Assembly (NCBI GenBank): GCA_041484665.1
Contig: JBGPIA010000001.1
Location: forward strand, 640,001 to 704,000
DNA length: 64,000 bases
Reading direction: 5' to 3'
Source of the DNA: Candidatus Krumholzibacteriia bacterium
GTDB lineage: Bacteria; Krumholzibacteriota; Krumholzibacteriia; JAJRXK01
The notes beneath the pieces were generated by a model. The model searched no databases and was not told the origin of the DNA. It saw only the letters and a list, made by a program, of their open reading frames with translations. This document shows positions 10,902 to 20,218 of the stretch, in pieces (position 1 is the first letter of the stretch; the number at the start of each line of letters is the position of its first letter). The position numbers and the translations under genes are program-made.

Positions 10902-13865
10902 ATGGCACAGCGCTCTGCGGCCTGCCTGGTCGCCCTCTCCTCCCTGCTGAGGGCAGCCGCCGCACCCCATGACACGCGCACTCGCTTCGAGGCCGCAATC
11001 TCCGCGGCCGACCAGACCTATGCCACCACCACCGGAGACACGAAGCGCTCGATCACCCTGCTGGACTCGCTGGTCGCCGACGCGCGCAGCGGGGGCGACT
11101 CCGCCCTCGTACTGCTGGCCGTCTCGGCACGCGGCCGGCAACTGGCCGGCGTCGGCGAGGCGGCGCGCGCCGAAACCGACCTGCGCGCCGCGCTGCGATT
11201 GTCCAGCGCGGCGCGCGATACCCTGCTGCAGTGCAAGGCGCTGCGCTGGCTGGGGTTGGCCATCGCCACGCAGTCGCGCATCGCCGAGTCCGCCTCCTAT
11301 TACACCGAGCTGTTGCGCCTGTCGCTCGCGCGCAAGGACCGACTCTACGAAGGCTACGGCTATTTCGGCCTCGCATACGTCGATCTGTGCGGCGGCAACA
11401 CCGAGGCGGCGCGCCGCGGCTACGAGCGTGCGATCGCCATTTTCCGCGAGCTGGGCCGCACCCGCGACGAGCTCTACGTGCTGGTGGGGATGGGCAGGCT
11501 GCTCGGGGAGGTCGGAGACCTGGAGGCCGCCCGGCGGTGTTTTCTCACCATCGTCGAGCGTGGCCGGCAGGTGGGGGCGCTCCAACCGCAGGTCGAGGCC
11601 CTGAACAATCTGGCCCTGCTCGAGCAGACCATCGGCGACCCCGGCCTCGCCCTGCAGCATTTTCGCGAAGCCTACGGGCTGTCCCGCGCGACGTCGAACA
11701 CCGATGACATGATCATGGCCCGGATCAATATCACAAGTGCCCTGACCCAGCTCGGCCACTTCGACGCCGCCGTTGCGGTGCTGGACTCCGCACTGCAGGT
11801 CTGCCGCGACCAGCACTACGTGGAGAAGGAGGCGTGGGTCCTCGACTACTTTGCAGACTTGAGGCGGCAACAAGGCCGGCCGAGGGAAGCGGAAGGGCTC
11901 TACCGCGCCGCGCTGGCGCTGGGCGGCGCGGTCCCGCCGCCTGTACAAGAGACAACTGTGCTGGGACTGGTGGAGAGCATGGGCGACTCCGTGGCTGCGC
12001 TGGCGACGCTGCGGCAGCACGCGGCCCGGCTGCGCCCGTTTCTCGCTTCGGGCAGAGCCGACCTCTTCGAATGCGAAGAGGGCATCCTGCTCCAGCGTCT
12101 GCGGCGGCACGCGCAAGCCCTGCGTCTGCTGCTGGCGGCGGATCGCGTGGCGCGGCGCACTGGCGCCATCACTGACCGTCTGCGGCCGCTCGTGCACGCG
12201 GCAGAGTGCTGGCGCGCTCTGGGACGACCCGACAGCGCGCTGATCGCGCTGCGGGGCGCCGAGCAGGTGTGGGAGACGCAGCGCGGGCTGCCCCGCGATC
12301 CACAATGGCGCGAGCTGCGCGGAACGCTGGCGCGGCAGTTCTACGGAAGCATGGCCGAGCTGCTGCTGGCCTACCCCCCTGAGCTGCCGCCCCAGGCGCG
12401 CACGCGGCGGGCGTTCGACGCGCTGCAGAAGTTCAAGGCACGCTCCCTGCTCGAGCGCATGACCGGCCCTGGCCTGGCCGCGGGCCACGTTCCGTTACCC
12501 GAGCAGCTGTCGATCCGCACCCTGGCACAAGTCCAGGACGCGGTGCTCGGCGACGGCGAGCTTCTCCTCGATTTCTTCGTCTCCACGGACGCCTCGTTCC
12601 TGTTTGCCGTGACGCGCAGCGAGTGCCGCGCGATCCGGCTGGTCGATGGGCCCGCGCTGGAGACCGCCGTCGCGCTCGCGCGCGACCTGTGGGCGACCGC
12701 GCCGCCGGAGCGCGCGCCCGCCGAGCAGGAGCCGCTCCGGCAAGCCGGGGTCGCGCTCGCGCGCATGCTGCTGGGCGAGGTGAGCGATCTCGTGCGCGCC
12801 AGCCGGCGCGTGATCGTCGCGCCCGATGGTCCGCTCAACCTCGTCGCCTTCGGCGCGCTGCCGGCGCCACGGATGGGGTCCAGCGGATCCGCGTCCGCCA
12901 CCAGATCCGCGGCCCTGGAGGTGGCCAGCCCGGTTTCCCTGCTGCGTGACCGCGAGCTCTGGAGCGTTCCCTCGGCGACCGTGCTCGCGCAGCTGCGGGC
13001 CCGACCAATGGGCGCGGCCGGTGACGTGCACGGACACAACGCGCCCGCCGTGCCGCCGGCGCCGGATCGCATCTTTGCCTGCGCACTCGGCGCGACCGCC
13101 GCCGGCCGCGCGCTACCCGGCGCGGTCGGAGAGGTCCGCTGGCTCGCGCGCCGCTATCGCGGAGTGGATCTCGCCCTGGACGATTTTAGCCGAGGCGGGC
13201 AGGCGCTCGTCGAGGCGCTGCCGGGGCACCGGGTCGTGCATCTGGCGACGCACACCGTGGTCGATGATCAGCGCCCCTGGAACTCCGGGCTGTTCCTCGG
13301 TTCGACCCGTGGCGGCGCCGTGGACGCCTACCTGCGCGCCAGCGAGATCGCCGAGCTGAGGCTTTCGGCCGATCTCTGCGTGCTGTCCGGCTGCGAGTCG
13401 GCGGGCGGCCGCGTACTGTCGGGCGAGGGTGTGCAGGGGCTCTGCGGCGCCTTCCTCAGCGCTGGGGTCCCGGCCGTGCTCGCGACGCTGTGGCCGGTCG
13501 ATGACCGCTCGACGGCGCGCATCGTGCGCGAGTTCTATTGCGCACTTGGCCGCGGCGGCAGCGCCGCCGAGGCGCTGCGCCGCGCGCAGCTCACCGTGGC
13601 CACGGACCCGCGCACGAGCCATCCGTTCTTCTGGGCGGGGTTCGTCCTGACCGGCGACGGCATGGCGCACGTGCGGCTGGCGCGCCGAGTCCCGCCCGCG
13701 GCCCCGGCTTGCGTGGCCGGCGCAGCCCTGGTGGCGATCGTGGCGCTGGCCCGTGCCCGACGTCGACGTCGTGCCCGGCGCAACGCGCGCGACCGGGTGT
13801 TGGCGTCCGCGCCGCTTCGTCGCGCCACCCTGTCCGACGCCGGCGCCACCGAGATCCGTCCGTGA
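10902..13865 (+). CDS. TPR-CHAT (caspase-like, clan CD) protease with C-terminal TM anchor and Arg-rich tail
   Basis: TPR helices (ALNNLALLEQTIGD..ALQHFREA); VIVAPDGPL; catalytic dyad VVHLATH and VLSGCES; TLWPVDD, HPFFWAGFVLTG; C-terminal ACVAGAALVAIVALARARRRRR. Confidence 0.93.
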   Translation: MAQRSAACLVALSSLLRAAAAPHDTRTRFEAAISAADQTYATTTGDTKRSITLLDSLVADARSGGDSALVLLAVSARGRQLAGVGEAARAETDLRAALRLSSAARDTLLQCKALRWLGLAIATQSRIAESASYYTELLRLSLARKDRLYEGYGYFGLAYVDLCGGNTEAARRGYERAIAIFRELGRTRDELYVLVGMGRLLGEVGDLEAARRCFLTIVERGRQVGALQPQVEALNNLALLEQTIGDPGLALQHFREAYGLSRATSNTDDMIMARINITSALTQLGHFDAAVAVLDSALQVCRDQHYVEKEAWVLDYFADLRRQQGRPREAEGLYRAALALGGAVPPPVQETTVLGLVESMGDSVAALATLRQHAARLRPFLASGRADLFECEEGILLQRLRRHAQALRLLLAADRVARRTGAITDRLRPLVHAAECWRALGRPDSALIALRGAEQVWETQRGLPRDPQWRELRGTLARQFYGSMAELLLAYPPELPPQARTRRAFDALQKFKARSLLERMTGPGLAAGHVPLPEQLSIRTLAQVQDAVLGDGELLLDFFVSTDASFLFAVTRSECRAIRLVDGPALETAVALARDLWATAPPERAPAEQEPLRQAGVALARMLLGEVSDLVRASRRVIVAPDGPLNLVAFGALPAPRMGSSGSASATRSAALEVASPVSLLRDRELWSVPSATVLAQLRARPMGAAGDVHGHNAPAVPPAPDRIFACALGATAAGRALPGAVGEVRWLARRYRGVDLALDDFSRGGQALVEALPGHRVVHLATHTVVDDQRPWNSGLFLGSTRGGAVDAYLRASEIAELRLSADLCVLSGCESAGGRVLSGEGVQGLCGAFLSAGVPAVLATLWPVDDRSTARIVREFYCALGRGGSAAEALRRAQLTVATDPRTSHPFFWAGFVLTGDGMAHVRLARRVPPAAPACVAGAALVAIVALARARRRRRARRNARDRVLASAPLRRATLSDAGATEIRP

Positions 13866-13889
13866 CGAATCCGGCGATGAGGTCTCTCT
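13861..13889 (+). promoter_or_regulatory. Putative ECF promoter (GTGA-N16-GTCTCTCT) of the sigma gene, likely leaderless
   Basis: cGTGA cgaatccggcgatgag GTCTC tct; ATG lies 7 nt after GTCTC and there is no obvious RBS between them. Confidence 0.65.
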
Positions 13890-13893
13890 GACC

Positions 13894-14505
13894 ATGGACG
13901 CGGACGACCGTGCCGGGGCCGTGTCGGGGCTGACCGACGACGAGCTGGTCCAGCTCGCCGTACGCGAGACCCAAGCCGGTGGTGGCGGACCGGCCGCCGG
14001 CGAGCTCTTGAGCCGCTACCAGCTGCGAGTCTATCGGTGGTGCCGCCGCTATGCGCGCGACCACGAGCGGGCGCTCGACCTCAGCCAGGACGTCCTGCTG
14101 CTCGCGTACCGCGCGCTGGGCTCCTTCGAAGGGAGGGCGCCGTTTTCGGCCTGGCTGTTCACCATTACGCGACGTCGCTGCATCCGGGCCATGCGGCCCG
14201 TGAGCATGCTGCGTTACGACGACGCCGAGCTGGAGCTGATCCCCGACGACCGCCCTGGAGCCGACCGTGCCCTGGAGGACGAGGATGAGCTGCAGCGCAT
14301 GATGGAGCTCGTGCGCAGTTGCCTCGACCCGGTAGAGCAGAAGGCGCTGATGATGCGCTGCATGGAGCGCATCCCGGTGGATGAGATCACGCAGCTTCTG
14401 GGAATCGCAGCGGCATCGGGCGCGCGCGGCGTCCTGCAGCAGGCACGTCGCAAGCTGCGCGCGGCATCGCACGAGGATGACGCTGGAGACGGGAGAACCC
14501 CATGA
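13894..14505 (+). CDS. ECF sigma-70 family RNA polymerase sigma factor
   Basis: TDDELV, LLSRYQLRVYRWC, ALDLSQDVLL, FEGRAPFSAWLFTITR (region 2); LDPVEQKAL..EITQLLG..ARRKLR (region 4). Confidence 0.93.
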   Translation: MDADDRAGAVSGLTDDELVQLAVRETQAGGGGPAAGELLSRYQLRVYRWCRRYARDHERALDLSQDVLLLAYRALGSFEGRAPFSAWLFTITRRRCIRAMRPVSMLRYDDAELELIPDDRPGADRALEDEDELQRMMELVRSCLDPVEQKALMMRCMERIPVDEITQLLGIAAASGARGVLQQARRKLRAASHEDDAGDGRTP

Positions 14506-15278
14506 GCGAACGATGCCTGACCGTCGAGGAATTGGCGGTGGCCCTGCAGCAGTCGGAGACGAGCCCAGGGCGCCGCCATCTCGCCGGGTGTCCGCGCTGC
14601 CAATCGGTCCTGATGTCCTACCGGGAGTTCCTCGAGCCCACCGCGACGCTCCCCGAGGGGGAGCTGCGGGAGGCCAACGCCAGGTTGCAGGAGCAGCTGG
14701 AGAAGCAGCTCGCTCTGGCCGGGCAGCCGGCGGGGCCGGCGGGGCGCTCGACAGCGGCACGACGCCCGCGTACGCACCGCGCGTGGCGCGACCGCCTCCC
14801 TGGCTGGCGCACGCTGCGCCCCGCGTGGACCGTGGCGCTCGGTGCGCTGGCCGTCGTGGCCGTGATCGCTGCGATCGAGCTCGCGCCCGACCGTTCGCGC
14901 CCGATCGTGTTGCGCGAGCAGGGAGAGCAGCGCGGAGTTCCCACGGGACTTCCGGCGCTGCTCCCAGTCGAGCCCGCGCCGGACGGAGGCTTGACGATTC
15001 GCTGGCAGCCGGTGTCCGGGGCAGATTCCTACGAGGTGCGGGTCTACTCCACGCAGCTGCAGGAGGTCGCACGCCTGGGCCCCGTGAGCGGGACCTCGTT
15101 CCTCTTGCGCCGCGCCGCGCTTCCCGCCGCGGCGGCGCCGGCCGGCGCGCCCGCGGGCACGTCGGCGGGCACGTCCGCCGCGGCGGCGCAGGACACCTTC
15201 CTGGTGCGCGTGGCCGCGCAGCGCGGCGGGGCGCAAATCGGCCTCTCCCACGTGACGAGTGTTCGACTGACGCGCTGA
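14502..15278 (+). CDS. Transmembrane anti-sigma factor (zf-HC2/ZAS N-terminus, TM, FN3/Ig-like outer domain)
   Basis: CLTVEEL..HLAGCPRC (HxxxCxxC); TM VALGALAVVAVIAAI; LTIRWQPVSGADSYEVRVY; ATGA overlap with the sigma stop. Confidence 0.88.
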   Translation: MSERCLTVEELAVALQQSETSPGRRHLAGCPRCQSVLMSYREFLEPTATLPEGELREANARLQEQLEKQLALAGQPAGPAGRSTAARRPRTHRAWRDRLPGWRTLRPAWTVALGALAVVAVIAAIELAPDRSRPIVLREQGEQRGVPTGLPALLPVEPAPDGGLTIRWQPVSGADSYEVRVYSTQLQEVARLGPVSGTSFLLRRAALPAAAAPAGAPAGTSAGTSAAAAQDTFLVRVAAQRGGAQIGLSHVTSVRLTR

Positions 15279-15389
15279 GCGGAACCCACCGTACGCTTCC
15301 CTCCACGCGCGGTCGCCTGTACGTGAGCCGCGATCGACGTGAACTCCCGTGCGCGTCGGCGTGCGCCGGGGTGCGCCCCATCGGCATGG

Positions 15390-15418
15390 TGTGATCCAGC
15401 GCCGACCGCTGTCTCTCT
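15390..15418 (+). promoter_or_regulatory. Putative ECF promoter upstream of fibre gene 1
   Basis: tGTGA tccagcgccgaccgct GTCTC tct (16-nt spacer). Confidence 0.65.
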
Positions 15419-15517
15419 TCGAGCAGAGCCGCCGATCCGCATGCTCCTCATCCCCACGCACGGTCCAGGAACGGCGTCACTCCCGGGCCTGCGACCGACC
15501 CCACAGGAGGGTCAATC

Positions 15518-17434
15518 ATGACTTGGCATTTCTCATCGTCTCCGGCCGCGCTGCGAGCTGTGCTCTCGGCGGTGGCCAGCTTGCTCCTCGCGCTCGATCC
15601 CGCCGGCATCGTTGCGGCCGGATCGCCGCCCAGCGCGGGGCCCGGCGCGCCGGCCCCCGGCAGTGCACGCATTGCCAGCAGCCCGCTCCCCAGGCTCGGG
15701 GTCGCGCCCAAGTCGGCCCCGCCCTCCGGCTTCACCTACCAGGGCCAGCTGCGCAACGGGCTCGGCGTGGTCAGTGGGCCGTGCGATCTCCAATTCTCGC
15801 TGTTCGATGCGCCGGCTGCGGGCGCTCAAGTTGGCACCACCCAGACCAGGCTCGGCGTCACCGTGGACAACGGGGTCTTGACCGTCCAGCTCGACTTCGG
15901 GGCCGGCGCGTTCCAAGGCGACGCGCGGTGGCTGGAAATCGCGGTGCGGTCTCCGTCGGGAGGCGGAAGCTACACCACGCTCACGCCGCGGCAGGCGGTG
16001 ACGGCTGCTCCACAGGCCCTGACGCTGCGCCCCGGCGCGCAGATTCGCACCGCCAGCGAGCCAATCGGGCTCACGGTGAGCGCGTCGGACGTCGCGTGGG
16101 TCGCCCCGGTCGGCGTGATGGCGACCGGCGGCACCAGCACGAATACGTTCCCGGGACAGCCTACCGGTGTGTTCGGTGAATCCGCCAACGGCACCGGGCT
16201 CCTGGGGTACAGCCAGAACGGGATCGCCATCGTGGGTCAATCCGATCTGAACGACGGCGTGCAGGGCATCAGCCAGGGCTCCAACGGGGTGTCCGGCTTC
16301 TCGGCAAAGGTCGGGGCGAGCGGCGTGTACGGCGAGAACAGCGCCGGTGGATACGGAGTCGCTGGACGCGCGTCCGGGAGCGGCATCGGCGTGTTCGGCG
16401 AAAACTTCGACTCCAACGGCTGGGCAGGGCGTTTCAACGGCAGGACGCTGATGAGTGGCGACCAGACTGTGCTCGGAAACCAGATCATCACATTCGACCA
16501 ATCAATTGCCGGTAGCCAGGACGTTGCCGGCGGCCAAACCGTAAGTGGCCCGCTGTCCGCGATGAGCGATGTCAGCGTAGGGGGCAACCAGTCGTTCGGC
16601 TCCGTGACGCGGCAGATGCTGAATCTGTGGGGGACCCAATACGGCGTCGGTGTCCAGAACGCCACCTTCTATTCCCGCAGCGGGGGCGCGTACGCCTGGT
16701 ACCAAGGGGGTACGCACAGCAACAGCCCCAATGACCCCGGACTGGGCGGGATCCCGCTCATGAACCTCAGTGCCAGCGGCAGGCTCAGCACGCTCAGCGG
16801 AATGACCGGTGGCACGCCGACCCCCGGCCAGAGCGGCGTGAGCGGCTCCAACACGGCGGCCTTCGACGCGTCCTTCGGTTCGGCGGGCGTGCTCGGCACG
16901 AGCACCCAAAATGTCGGCGTGATCGCCCAGAGCTCGAACTTCCGCCCCTTCATGGCGTTCGGCAGCAATCTGCTGGATCCAAAGTTCTACATCGAGAACA
17001 ACGGAAACGTGCGCGCCGACGGGACCTTCTCCTCACCGGCGGCCGACTTCGCCGAGATGATGCCGGCCGGTGAAGTCCTCGAGCCCGGCGACGTGCTGGC
17101 GATCGGAGCCGACGGCGCGCTCGTCCGCTCCCGCGCGCCATACCAGCGCAGCGTGGTCGGCGTGTACTCGACCAAGCCGGCGTTCCTCGGCGGATCGCAG
17201 GAAGGTGGCAGGACCGCGGGGCAGGTGCCCCTCGCGGTCGTCGGCATTGTGCCGGTGAAGGTCACGGCTTCCAATGGCCCGATCCGGCCGGGGGACCTGC
17301 TCGTGGCCTCCTCCAGCCCGGGGCGCGCCATGCGCGCCGATGACGCTCCATCCATCGGATCGGTGATCGGCAAGGCGCTACAGCGTCTGGACGACGGCGC
17401 CGGGACAATCCAGGTCGTCATCATGCTCCAGTAG
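15518..17434 (+). CDS. Secreted tail-fibre-like protein 1 with C-terminal Peptidase_G2-like intramolecular chaperone domain
   Basis: Signal-like N-terminus; FTYQGQL..QFSLFDA..LDFG..RWLEIAVR..LTPRQ domain; Gly-rich GVxGxS repeats; RQMLNLWGTQYG; C-terminal ADFAE..EPGDVL..GVYSTKP..VGIVPVKV..GDLLV..IGKAL; CAGGAGGG RBS. Confidence 0.85.
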   Translation: MTWHFSSSPAALRAVLSAVASLLLALDPAGIVAAGSPPSAGPGAPAPGSARIASSPLPRLGVAPKSAPPSGFTYQGQLRNGLGVVSGPCDLQFSLFDAPAAGAQVGTTQTRLGVTVDNGVLTVQLDFGAGAFQGDARWLEIAVRSPSGGGSYTTLTPRQAVTAAPQALTLRPGAQIRTASEPIGLTVSASDVAWVAPVGVMATGGTSTNTFPGQPTGVFGESANGTGLLGYSQNGIAIVGQSDLNDGVQGISQGSNGVSGFSAKVGASGVYGENSAGGYGVAGRASGSGIGVFGENFDSNGWAGRFNGRTLMSGDQTVLGNQIITFDQSIAGSQDVAGGQTVSGPLSAMSDVSVGGNQSFGSVTRQMLNLWGTQYGVGVQNATFYSRSGGAYAWYQGGTHSNSPNDPGLGGIPLMNLSASGRLSTLSGMTGGTPTPGQSGVSGSNTAAFDASFGSAGVLGTSTQNVGVIAQSSNFRPFMAFGSNLLDPKFYIENNGNVRADGTFSSPAADFAEMMPAGEVLEPGDVLAIGADGALVRSRAPYQRSVVGVYSTKPAFLGGSQEGGRTAGQVPLAVVGIVPVKVTASNGPIRPGDLLVASSSPGRAMRADDAPSIGSVIGKALQRLDDGAGTIQVVIMLQ

Positions 17435-17491
17435 GCGCTCCCGGCCGCCCGCCAGCGCGTGGCCGGCTTGGCGCGACGGGTCGTTCGGATT

Positions 17492-17520
17492 TGTGACGTG
17501 GCGTCGCTGGGCGTCTCCCT
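17492..17520 (+). promoter_or_regulatory. Putative ECF promoter upstream of fibre gene 2
   Basis: tGTGA cgtggcgtcgctgggc GTCTC cct (16-nt spacer). Confidence 0.65.
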
Positions 17521-17643: not shown

Positions 17644-19596
17644 ATGATCCGTCCCACCCGACTCCATCCGGCCGCGCGCCTGCGGCCGAGTCCTTTCAGT
17701 CTCCGCTCGCTCGAGCGCGCGGCGGGCGTCGCGCTCGTCGCCCGTATCGCGCTCGTCGCGTCCGTCACGTTCGTCGCGGCTCTCGCGCTGGTTGCGAACA
17801 TCGCCTCCGCGGCGGGCCCCGCGCACAACGGCGGGCCACAGGGAAGCTCCGCGGGCGGCAGCCCGCGCATGGTCAGCGGCCCCATCCCCGCGGGCGCCGC
17901 GACGATCCAGAGCGCCCTGGGCACGGGCTTCACCTATCAGGGCCAGCTGCGCAATGGTCAGGGTGCCGTGAGCGGTCCGTGCGACTTCCAGTTCTCGCTG
18001 TTCGACGCGCTGACGGCCGGCACGCAGATCGGCTCGACGCAGACGAAAAGCGCTGTGACCGTGGAAAACGGTGTCTTCACCGTGCAGCTCGACTTCGGGA
18101 ACACTGCCTTCACCGGCGATGCGCGCTGGCTGCAGATCGCGCTCCGTTCGCCGGCGGGAGGCGGCGCCTACACCGCGCTCGCCCCTCGCCAGCCCGTCAC
18201 GTCCGCCCCCGAGGCGCTCACGCTGCGGCCCGGCGCGACGATCCAGACCGTTACCGAGCCCGTCGGCGCGACCGTCAGCGCCTCGAACATCGCATGGGCG
18301 AATCCAGTGGCTCTCCGCGCCATCGGCGGCACCGCGACGAACCAGCTGCCGGCCATGCCAACCGGTGTCTATGGCGAGTCCGCCACGGGCGTGGGCGTAT
18401 TCGGCAACAGCACGCAGAGCTACGGGGTGCTCGGCAACTCGGACGCGCAGACCGCCGTCCAGGGGAACAGCATCAACAGCAACGGCGTCGCCGGGATGAG
18501 CTCCAACCCCATTGCCAGCGGCGTGTATGGTGAAAACCTGGCGGGTGGGTTCGGCGTGGCCGGGCGTGCGTCGCAGTTCGGAACGGCCGTGCTGGGCGAT
18601 AACACCGGCGGCGGGCGAGCCGGCCAGTTCAATGGCACCGTCGACGTCAGCGGCGACCAGAGCATCGGCGGCAATCTCAGTTTCGGAGCCGCCAGGCGCC
18701 AGATGCTCAACCTCTGGGGAACGCAGTACGGCATCGGCGTGCAGGACCTCACGCAGTACTACCGGACCGACGGCGGGGCCGGCTTCGCCTGGCACCAGGG
18801 TGGCTCGCACAGCAACACGCAGAACGATCCCGGATCCGGCGGAAGGACGGTCATGACGCTCGACGCGAACGGGCAGCTCAACGTTCCGCTGGGCGGGCTG
18901 AACGCAACCGATGCCAGCGACTATGGCGTGCGCGGAGCTGGTGGCGTCGGCGGGGTATTCGGCTCCACGGCCAATCTCTCCGGAGCGGGAGTCTTCGGCA
19001 TCAACACCTCTGGGGGCGGGAGCTCGTCGGCGGGCGTCTTCGGGCAGGGCAACAACGCGCCCGGGGTGGTCGGCCAGAGCTTCACCTCGCGCCCGTTCGT
19101 CGGGTACGGATCGAATCTGAACGACCCGGTCTTCTACGTCGACAATGCGGGATCCGTACACGCCGACGGGACCTACACGTCGCCGGCCGCGGACTTCGCC
19201 GAGCTGCTCCCCGCCGACGATGGGTTGGAGCCAGGTGACGTGCTCGCGATCGGGGACGACGGCAGACTGCTCCAAAGTGTGCAGCCGTACCAGACCAGCG
19301 TCGTTGGTGTATACTCGGCCAAGCCCGCCTTCCTCGGCGGGAAGCGCGATGTTGCCCAGGGCGTGGGCGGTCCGCAGGCGGACCAAGTTCCGCTGGCGGT
19401 GATCGGAATCGTCCCGGTCAAGGTCACCTCCGCCAACGGACCCATCAAGCCTGGAGACCTGCTGGTGGCGTCGTCGACGCCCGGCCGCGCGATGCGCGCC
19501 GACGTCAACCCGCCCAATGGAACGGTCATCGGAAAGGCGCTCGGACGGCTGGACGACGGAGCCGGCACGATCCAGGTCGTCATCATGCTGCAATAG
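17644..19596 (+). CDS. Secreted tail-fibre-like protein 2 (paralog of 15518..17434)
   Basis: Same architecture, same C-terminal RLDDGAGTIQVVIMLQ, same CAGGAGGG RBS. Confidence 0.85.
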   Translation: MIRPTRLHPAARLRPSPFSLRSLERAAGVALVARIALVASVTFVAALALVANIASAAGPAHNGGPQGSSAGGSPRMVSGPIPAGAATIQSALGTGFTYQGQLRNGQGAVSGPCDFQFSLFDALTAGTQIGSTQTKSAVTVENGVFTVQLDFGNTAFTGDARWLQIALRSPAGGGAYTALAPRQPVTSAPEALTLRPGATIQTVTEPVGATVSASNIAWANPVALRAIGGTATNQLPAMPTGVYGESATGVGVFGNSTQSYGVLGNSDAQTAVQGNSINSNGVAGMSSNPIASGVYGENLAGGFGVAGRASQFGTAVLGDNTGGGRAGQFNGTVDVSGDQSIGGNLSFGAARRQMLNLWGTQYGIGVQDLTQYYRTDGGAGFAWHQGGSHSNTQNDPGSGGRTVMTLDANGQLNVPLGGLNATDASDYGVRGAGGVGGVFGSTANLSGAGVFGINTSGGGSSSAGVFGQGNNAPGVVGQSFTSRPFVGYGSNLNDPVFYVDNAGSVHADGTYTSPAADFAELLPADDGLEPGDVLAIGDDGRLLQSVQPYQTSVVGVYSAKPAFLGGKRDVAQGVGGPQADQVPLAVIGIVPVKVTSANGPIKPGDLLVASSTPGRAMRADVNPPNGTVIGKALGRLDDGAGTIQVVIMLQ

Positions 19597-19606
19597 GAGG
19601 ACCGCA

Positions 19607-20218
19607 ATGCGAACCACGAGACTCCAACGCAGGAGCCCCCGCCCGCCGCTCCTCGCGCTGGCGGGGGCGGCCACGGCGATCGCCCTCGCCACGGCCGCGC
19701 CGGCCTTCGCGCAAACCGGCGGCGGGTACGATCTCACCTGGAACACCATCGACGGCGGCGGAGCGACCTTCAGCACCGGCGGCGGCTTCACCTTGGGCGG
19801 CACGATCGGCCAGCCCGATGCGGGGCTGTTGACCGGCGGGTCGTTCACGCTGCGCGGCGGCTTCTGGGGCGGCGGTCCGGTCGCCACGGGCGTGCCCGAG
19901 CCGGGCGACCGGCCCGGGAACGACCAGCCCGCGCTCCCGCTGGTCCAGCGCCTCTACCCCAATGTCCCCAATCCATTCAACCCGCGGACGGCCATCGCGT
20001 TTGACCTCCCTCATCCCAGCTCGGTTCGGCTGGAGATCTTCAATCTGCGCGGCGAGCTGGTGCGCACGCTGGTGCGCGAGGACCGCGCCCCCGGTCATCA
20101 CACGGTGATCTGGGAGGGAAACGACGACGGCGGACGAGCGGTGGCCAGCGGCTCGTACATCCTTCGCCTATCCACCCAGGAGGGGGTCCACCGGGAGAAG
20201 GTCATCCTGGTCCGTTGA
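19607..20218 (+). CDS. Small secreted protein: Gly-rich beta domain plus C-terminal FlgD-Ig/T9SS-like domain (putative fibre anchor)
   Basis: Signal peptide ending AFA|Q; GGGYDLTWNTIDGGG..GGGFTLGGTIGQPDAG..LRGGFW; NVPNPFNPRTAIAFDL..GELVRTL..WEG.D..VASGSY; AGGAGG RBS. Confidence 0.88.
   Translation: MRTTRLQRRSPRPPLLALAGAATAIALATAAPAFAQTGGGYDLTWNTIDGGGATFSTGGGFTLGGTIGQPDAGLLTGGSFTLRGGFWGGGPVATGVPEPGDRPGNDQPALPLVQRLYPNVPNPFNPRTAIAFDLPHPSSVRLEIFNLRGELVRTLVREDRAPGHHTVIWEGNDDGGRAVASGSYILRLSTQEGVHREKVILVR

Follow-up and report, generated by a model that had tools for sequence, protein, structure and literature searches.

Predicted promoters and local regulon of an ECF sigma factor beside a TPR-CHAT protease gene in Candidatus Krumholzibacteriia

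Gene module and motif copies

The analysed stretch of DNA (the window) comprises 64,000 nucleotides (nt) of contig JBGPIA010000001.1 (positions 640,001 to 704,000, forward strand) of a Candidatus Krumholzibacteriia bacterium. Genes for a TPR-CHAT protease, for a sigma factor of the extracytoplasmic function (ECF) type and for a predicted anti-sigma factor form a module, which is followed by two fibre-like genes and a small gene of the secreted type (Table 1). Three copies of a bipartite motif, located upstream of the sigma gene and of both fibre-like genes, very probably represent the promoter and the local regulon of the adjacent sigma factor, as judged from the comparison of orthologous loci. 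ECF promoters with a local regulon are of a known kind, to which this locus adds a −12 C variant explained by the known code and, likely, an unusual arrangement at the sigma start.

Table 1. Features of the module, with coordinates of the window (aa, amino acids; SD, Shine-Dalgarno)
Feature	Coordinates	Strand	Remarks
TPR-CHAT protease	10902..13865	+	Pfam CHAT 8e-53, TPR_12 1e-17; His (HLATH) and Cys (SGCES) motifs
Copy 1, −35 box CGTGAC	13861..13866	+	contains the CHAT stop codon TGA 13863-13865
SD-like GAGGT, inferred for the sigma ATG	13879..13883	+	spans spacer end and −10 box, upstream of the predicted transcription start
Copy 1, −10 box GTCTCT	13882..13887	+	−14 to −9; core C13884, T13885, C13886 = −12, −11, −10
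ECF sigma factor, 203 aa	13894..14505	+	Sigma70_r2 1e-16; TIGR02937 above cut-off
Predicted anti-sigma factor	14502..15278	+	HxxxCxxC zinc motif, hydrophobic segment, invariant Arg138, C-terminal domain, own SD-like sequence
Copy 2, TGTGAT-N15-GTCTCT	15390..15416	+	intergenic, 5' of fibre-like gene 1; rank 1 of 35,313
Predicted target 1, fibre-like, 638 aa	15518..17434	+	signal-peptide-like N-terminus, glycine-rich
Copy 3, TGTGAC-N15-GTCTCC	17492..17518	+	intergenic, 5' of fibre-like gene 2; rank 7 of 35,313
Predicted target 2, paralogue of target 1	17644..19596	+	56% identity to target 1
Small FlgD_ig-tailed secreted-type gene	19607..20218	+	FlgD_ig 3e-11; 10 nt after target 2

The TPR-CHAT protein has a hydrophobic N-terminus and a C-terminal hydrophobic stretch with a basic tail; its start codon, ATG 10902, is inferred, the frame being open from 10677. 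None of the best 25 of 61 matches of the sigma factor was an NCBIfam equivalog above cut-off. The predicted anti-sigma factor has no match in Pfam. Among its orthologues, HxxxCxxC was found in 76/98 and Arg138 in 98/98, and 78 of 92 anti-sigma genes have an SD-like sequence of their own (energy at or below −5, calculated here and below with a generic anti-SD sequence).

An exact scan for GTGA-N16-GTCTC gave matches at 13862, 15391 and 17493, all on the + strand and the only ones in the window, as listed in a first-pass annotation of this DNA. The layout which that annotation described for copy 1 was also found, namely, the TGA of the −35 box is the CHAT stop codon, and the last base of GTCTC, 13886, is followed by the sigma ATG after 7 nt. 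Three matches in the window compare with a mean of 0.64 in shuffled sequences, 5/100 of which reached three. The extended form GTGA-N16-GTCTCYCT has three matches in the window against 0.02 expected (0/100 shuffles) and no others in the whole genome of 5.45 Mb; this pattern was derived from the three sites themselves, so these statistics are post hoc.

The genome-wide scan suggested by the annotation had a divided outcome. The short form is at background, with 19 matches, while spacers of 12, 13, 15, 18, 19 and 21 nt give 12-19 matches and the codon-phase spacers 14, 17 and 20 give 45-62. A matrix that combines 102 orthologous −35 boxes with 12 orthologous −10 boxes, and to which this genome contributed nothing, is out of sample here; it places the window copies at ranks 1, 7 and 8 among the 35,313 GTGA sites of the genome. 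When the −10 boxes in the matrix were swapped, the copies fell to ranks 6-45 (Asn-class boxes) and 57-333 (Ser/Asp-class boxes). Eight sites reach the threshold with spacer 16, three of them local, versus 0-6 at twelve other spacers; therefore, there is no genome-wide excess past the three local copies, and the regulon appears to be local. Nearly half of ECF sigma factors control three or fewer promoters (PMC7776599), and a local regulon in the window agrees with this pattern as well as with the four local promoters of Myxococcus xanthus DdvS (PMC6061681).

Conservation, the −10 box and the specificity residue

A close relative of the sigma factor is present in 89 of the 208 genomes of the phylum, with 137 matches, three of them in the genome of the window. 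The locus set (n = 109) includes 101 of the 134 matches in relatives, taken down the match list with many on short contigs or contig ends skipped, five from another set of 80 loci, namely those from Eisenbacteria with E at most 6e-30, and the three from the genome of the window. At a distance of 135-215 nt on the 5' side of a fixed sigma residue, 104/108 other loci have GTGA, versus 107/633 control windows. The pattern YGTGAY-N14-16-NNSTY precedes the sigma gene in 95/109 loci, and eight control windows gave 0-3 matches in 101-109 loci; the pattern was written after the sequences had been seen, and therefore the controls gauge chance, not prior expectation. The spacer is 16 nt in 78 of 105 orthologous sites, 15 in 15 and 17 in 12. 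Accordingly, the predicted bipartite promoter of fixed spacing recognized in the first-pass annotation is, by sequence comparison, conserved before orthologous ECF genes. Its literal form GTGA-N16-GTCTC precedes only 3/108 other sigma genes, and GTGA-N16-GnCTC precedes 11/108.

Most orthologues have G-Y-G-T-C-Y at 16 nt from GTGA, where the window has G-T-C-T-C-T. Same-place alignment to the 105 orthologous sites therefore puts the G-T-C of the family on C13884-T13885-C13886. The −10 core of the window is thus, in this alignment, C-T-C, a −12 C variant, and not G-T-C, so the '(C)GTC-type' box of the first-pass annotation has to be shifted. The G-T-C register was rejected: with it, the −11 base would be mixed (T 5, A 5, G 3 of 13), while the shifted register has T in 12/13.

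The bases −13 and −12 follow residue 98 of the sigma factor, which is located eleven residues after a conserved Trp at the position of Asn84 of RpoE (alignment to PDB 6in7_B; numbering of PMC7776599). In the window sigma, Arg94 and Arg98 occupy the positions of RpoE Asn80 and Asn84. Of the sigma residues, number 98 shares most mutual information with −13 (1.13) and with −12 (0.69): Asn is paired with TG in 31/31 loci, Ser/Asp with CG in 49/50 and Arg with xC in 13/16, and the window combines Arg98 with −12 C. The pairing is in line with published mutagenesis of the Asn84 position (PMC7776599, Dataset S3), where the best dinucleotides for Arg are GC (0.18) and AC (0.16), −12 C summing to 0.49, CG is preferred by Asp (0.62) and Ser (0.46), and TG is highest with Asn (0.19). 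The register of the −10 box given above is set by residue 98 together with this dataset. On a quick tree, the Asn label at residue 98 changes six times, at least three of the changes being forced by starred branches.

The three paralogous modules of this genome have a common −35 box and the −10 boxes GTCTCT, AGATCC and TCGTCT. The latter two belong to modules at G000:C36:8780 and G000:C46 near 3100 (− strand), which have no second copy at the module end at the threshold used; the C46 sigma ATG is inside the spacer. A site similar to that of C36, TGTGAC-N15-GGATCT, is located at G000:C18:37089 (− strand) about 35 nt before a gene for a 605-aa protein, as one of 16 genome matches.

A second motif copy at the module end, equivalent to the copies upstream of the genes after the window module, was found in 41/102 scorable loci versus 1-2 of 94-102 in five control windows; seven of the 109 loci were dropped because of a contig end or because the anti-sigma end was not found. 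The bases −13/−12 of the second copy follow the local sigma factor: xC in 8/8 Arg loci, CG in 13/15 Ser/Asp loci and TG in 10/16 Asn loci. These equivalents, together with the lack of a genome-wide excess, bear out the local regulon of the first-pass annotation. Of 35 downstream open reading frames (ORFs) of 150 aa or more, 25 were scanned; a FlgD_ig tail was found in 15 and a tail of the type IX secretion system type in one, FG-GAP, beta-helix or CARDB repeats were common, four had no family at E 1e-6, and one was leucyl-tRNA synthetase.

Second copies with −12 T (GTTTCC, GGTTCY) were found at the Asn98 loci L127, L132, L160, L169, L172 and L181, where the gene order is sigma, anti-sigma, CHAT and the three targets scanned are FG-GAP/FlgD proteins of 1300 aa. 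At L119 and L124 a leucyl-tRNA synthetase gene (identified by Pfam at L119 and by a similar N-terminus at L124) follows the second copy at a distance of about 200-230 nt, and L119 has an ATG at +9, which might open a short leaderless ORF. At L113, L115 and L123 a strong second copy occurs 16-17 nt past the anti-sigma gene, with no ORF of more than 50 aa picked within 320 nt; a small RNA, a short peptide or a long leader is possible.

Transcription start and the sigma start codon

The published rule places the ECF transcription start at 9 or 10 nt, counted from the −10 base (PMC7776599). Among 39 target promoters (41 minus two inside the anti-sigma gene, window copy 3 included), a pyrimidine-purine step is present at +9/+10 in 34 and at +8 in three; in the Arg class, it is present at +9/+10 in 7/8 listed target sites and in window copy 3. 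All three window copies have the step at +10, which favours starts at G13896, A15425 and A17527 instead of the 13893, 15422 and 17524 expected in the first-pass annotation. For copy 1, the predicted start G13896 coincides with the last base of the sigma start codon, and a transcript starting on this G would therefore give the anti-sigma factor but not the full-length sigma factor. At the DdvS promoter PMXAN_7283 of Myxococcus xanthus, the ATG is at +8 and the start mapped by rapid amplification of cDNA ends (RACE) is on its G (PMC6061681).

The GAGGT sequence of copy 1 has a duplex energy of −6.3. In the Arg class, an SD-like sequence (at or below −5) overlaps the spacer and −10 box at 12/13 sigma genes versus 0/9 target sites, and in 7/13 sigma genes the sole nearby ATG is at +5, so that leaderless translation is impossible there. 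Therefore, copy 1 likely yields anti-sigma, not sigma. Across 101 loci, the last possible sigma start is at +3 or earlier in 27, at +4 to +6 in 18, at +7/+8 in 33 and at +9 or later in 22, with none in one; among the loci with a start at +9 or later, an SD-led ATG or GTG was found in only one, and two start at +9. In the Asp98 clade (L139, L141, L143, L144, L147, L150, L152, L163, L165, L171 and C46), the sigma ATG is 13 nt before the −10 base, an SD-like sequence is absent, the codon at +8 varies and the promoter is wholly within the sigma gene.

Chance, or a by-product of the stop codon, the start codon or terminator-like sequence, is a very improbable origin of the copies. It would account for the background frequency of the short pattern, for the CHAT stop in copy 1 and for the overlap of copy 2 with a terminator-like consensus match (15397-15411), and copies 2 and 3 may derive from one duplication (upstream regions score 115 versus 77 ± 10, maximum 111). 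It is contradicted by the out-of-sample ranks, by the site 5' of the sigma gene in 95/109 loci and by the second copy in 41/102; moreover, an ORF of at least 400 aa terminates at the TGA in just 25/105 loci, and in 80/105 no long ORF ends there, so that the CHAT stop does not explain the −35 box. Reading of the motif by another factor, a paralogous ECF sigma or a repressor, is improbable as well. The −35 box is common to the three paralogues of the genome, the C36 paralogue likewise having Arg98, and to ECF11, ECF22 and ECF118 (PMC7826278), which would suit this explanation, but in upstream as in downstream copies the −10 bases change with the local sigma's residue 98, and the motif is not palindromic. 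Several observations weigh against assigning the copies to the adjacent sigma as its promoter and regulon: the loci come from related genomes and are not independent; 61/102 loci have no second copy at the threshold used; 6/16 Asn-class second copies carry −12 T; in the published dataset Asn still favours CG (0.40) over TG (PMC7776599, Dataset S3); and the Arg98 class has only one or two origins on the quick tree, so that for its covariation the published code is the main support. Hairpins for termination or translational coupling were rejected at the sites, with folding z-scores of −1.1 to +0.6, not beyond shuffles, as was an explanation by terminator-like sequence (5 matches versus 2.7 ± 1.8 in shuffles).

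The leaderless, autoregulated sigma transcript of the first-pass annotation accepts the same promoter and regulon, with copy 1 starting at A13894, possibly mixed with starts at G13896, and with positive autoregulation; it is possible, though on the doubtful side. In its favour, the sigma start is most often at +8 (35/105 loci, with +7 in 8 and +9 in three), a C-A step is present at 13893-13894, and an SD-like sequence accompanies only 5/33 ATG/GTG starts at +8, its absence at 28 being as expected of leaderless genes. Autoregulation is frequent among ECF sigma factors (PMC7826278), and ddvS is itself transcribed by DdvS (PMC6061681). Also unfavourable to an anti-sigma transcript are the +9/+10 steps of 27 sites inside the sigma gene, which are near background (16/27), and the GTG at 13921, which could start a shorter sigma, although without SD (−1.1). 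Against the leaderless start, +8 is a trough among target promoters (3/39), +9/+10 being preferred, and the RACE-mapped DdvS site of the same geometry begins on G. An SD-like sequence is present at 12/13 Arg-class sigma genes, an ATG at +8 is missing in 7/13, and in 45/101 loci of the family the last start codon comes before +7. Sigma starts at −10 and −13 likewise have no SD-like sequence (0/23), and therefore its lack at +8 is not decisive.

The preferred reading is that the adjacent ECF sigma factor uses the copies as promoters (−35 box YGTGAY, −10 box G-N-C-T-C-Y), that copies 2 and 3 drive secreted genes, and that copy 1 makes anti-sigma rather than full-length sigma. As a whole it is somewhat favoured; its anti-sigma-first step is reasonably probable once the promoter and the local regulon are granted. 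By known ECF rules, region 4 of the sigma would read the family-wide −35 box and region 2 the −10 box, and a single residue would insulate the paralogues with GTCTCT, AGATCC and TCGTCT in this genome. The sigma would be translated from a longer CHAT-sigma-anti-sigma mRNA by means of GAGGT inside the promoter and, by analogy with DdvA and Csx29, would be held by the anti-sigma until the protease cuts the latter, with Arg138 as a candidate cut site. Freed sigma would act through copies 2 and 3 on the secreted genes and through copy 1 on the anti-sigma gene, restoring its own inhibitor in a manner comparable to PrshA of Corynebacterium glutamicum, and the outcome would be a self-terminating pulse rather than a positive loop.

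A tentative extension to the whole family, at present not the favoured outcome, is that the promoter, autoregulatory in appearance, overlies the ribosome-binding site and start codon of the sigma gene, so that sigma would transcribe its inhibitor and not itself; this would be an off-switch, with paralogues insulated by the residue reading −13/−12, and the protease would also be transcribed where its gene follows. The analysis supplies the predicted promoter, specificity residue and output genes of a caspase-like-protease/ECF switch in 89/208 genomes of an uncultured phylum. With promoter and outputs in hand, the activating signal becomes testable by reporter, and in about 100 sigma-promoter pairs of three classes nature itself puts the published ECF code to the test. 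If copy 1 does omit the start codon, the inference of positive autoregulation from a motif 5' of an ECF gene fails here and the circuit would be a self-limiting pulse; without the anti-sigma-first step, it would be an ordinary local ECF regulon.

Related systems and neighbouring genes

The rseAp promoter of Escherichia coli is a case similar to PrshA. The latter is a SigH-dependent promoter inside the sigma gene of C. glutamicum, giving an anti-sigma-only transcript which was proposed to shut the response down (PMC3489674). PrshA differs in being plainly internal, with an rshA transcript of about 370 nt (PMC3489674), whereas the window promoter straddles the start codon and looks autoregulatory. 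In the available text on the ECF promoter code (Todor et al. 2020, PMC7776599), no promoter placed across a sigma start codon was met; that code is shared in that the residue at the Asn84 position sets −13/−12.

The DdvS/DdvA system of M. xanthus resembles the window module in its ECF sigma, zinc anti-sigma and TPR-CHAT domain (PMC6061681, PMC11506125). Four local DdvS promoters have the form GTAA-n16-CGT, similar to the GTGA-n16/17-YGTC of the window family, and PddvSA, upstream of ddvS, provides positive autoregulation (PMC6061681). In DdvA, TPR-CHAT is fused to the anti-sigma, whereas the window has separate ORFs; the −35 box is GTAA, whereas the window has GTGA with −10 GTCTCY and −12 C; and the targets are CBASS/CRISPR, whereas those predicted for the window family are secreted FlgD-tailed or fibre-like proteins. 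The Asp98 subclass of the window family has the DdvS spacing, yet GTGA and not GTAA. DdvS was not among the 17 PDB matches of the window sigma, and no direct comparison with the DdvS sequence was made. In the type III-E CRISPR system with CASP-sigma, Csx30 and Csx29, a TPR-CHAT protease also cuts an anti-sigma and three sigma sites are in the locus, but the system is cytoplasmic and RNA-triggered (PMC10028731).

According to the available text of PMC7826278, ECF54 is encoded near TPR-CHAT proteins and has a predicted −10 CTCC; it is actinobacterial, with no anti-sigma, a −35 box GTATCAG and carboxypeptidase-like and subtilase neighbours, whereas the window has a predicted anti-sigma directly downstream and a −35 box YGTGAY. 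The same source gives similar −35 boxes for ECF11, ECF22 and ECF118 (GTGATC, TGTGATTTT and TGTGAC), but with −10 CGTA, GCGAAT and AACC, cupin or multi-pass anti-sigmas and no CHAT. No published account of this sigma family or motif was found in literature weighted towards open access; a description of the group may exist elsewhere.

The predicted output of copies 2 and 3 consists of both fibre-like secreted genes together with the small FlgD-tailed gene, the last of which is likely co-transcribed with target 2. The fibre-like genes have no match in Pfam, PHROGs, NCBIfam or PDB sequences, the best PDB relative of target 2 having E 0.49. Atlas look-alikes of target 1 are unnamed, with one cluster, 17% Peptidase_G2 at 0.89, as a lead only. 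A partial homologue of a fibre gene was found near the module in 1/105 other loci searched (L204). No Cas families were detected among the 17 window ORFs scanned.

Elsewhere in this genome, a further fibre-like gene is located beside a FlgD-tailed gene at G000:C1:242500-247000 (L213), with no motif upstream. The site ranked second in the genome, TGTGAT-N15-AACTCT at G000:C1:96069-96095 (L210), is intergenic, about 120 nt before a gene for a 1061-aa PKD/FlgD-tailed protein. It falls within the background count, and the motif was not seen at the corresponding position before five distant homologues from two genomes, so the site is only a candidate for a possible distal target. TGTAAC-N16-CGTCT, a conventional form of ECF promoter, occurs before an unrelated ECF gene at G000:C1 near 837050 (− strand).

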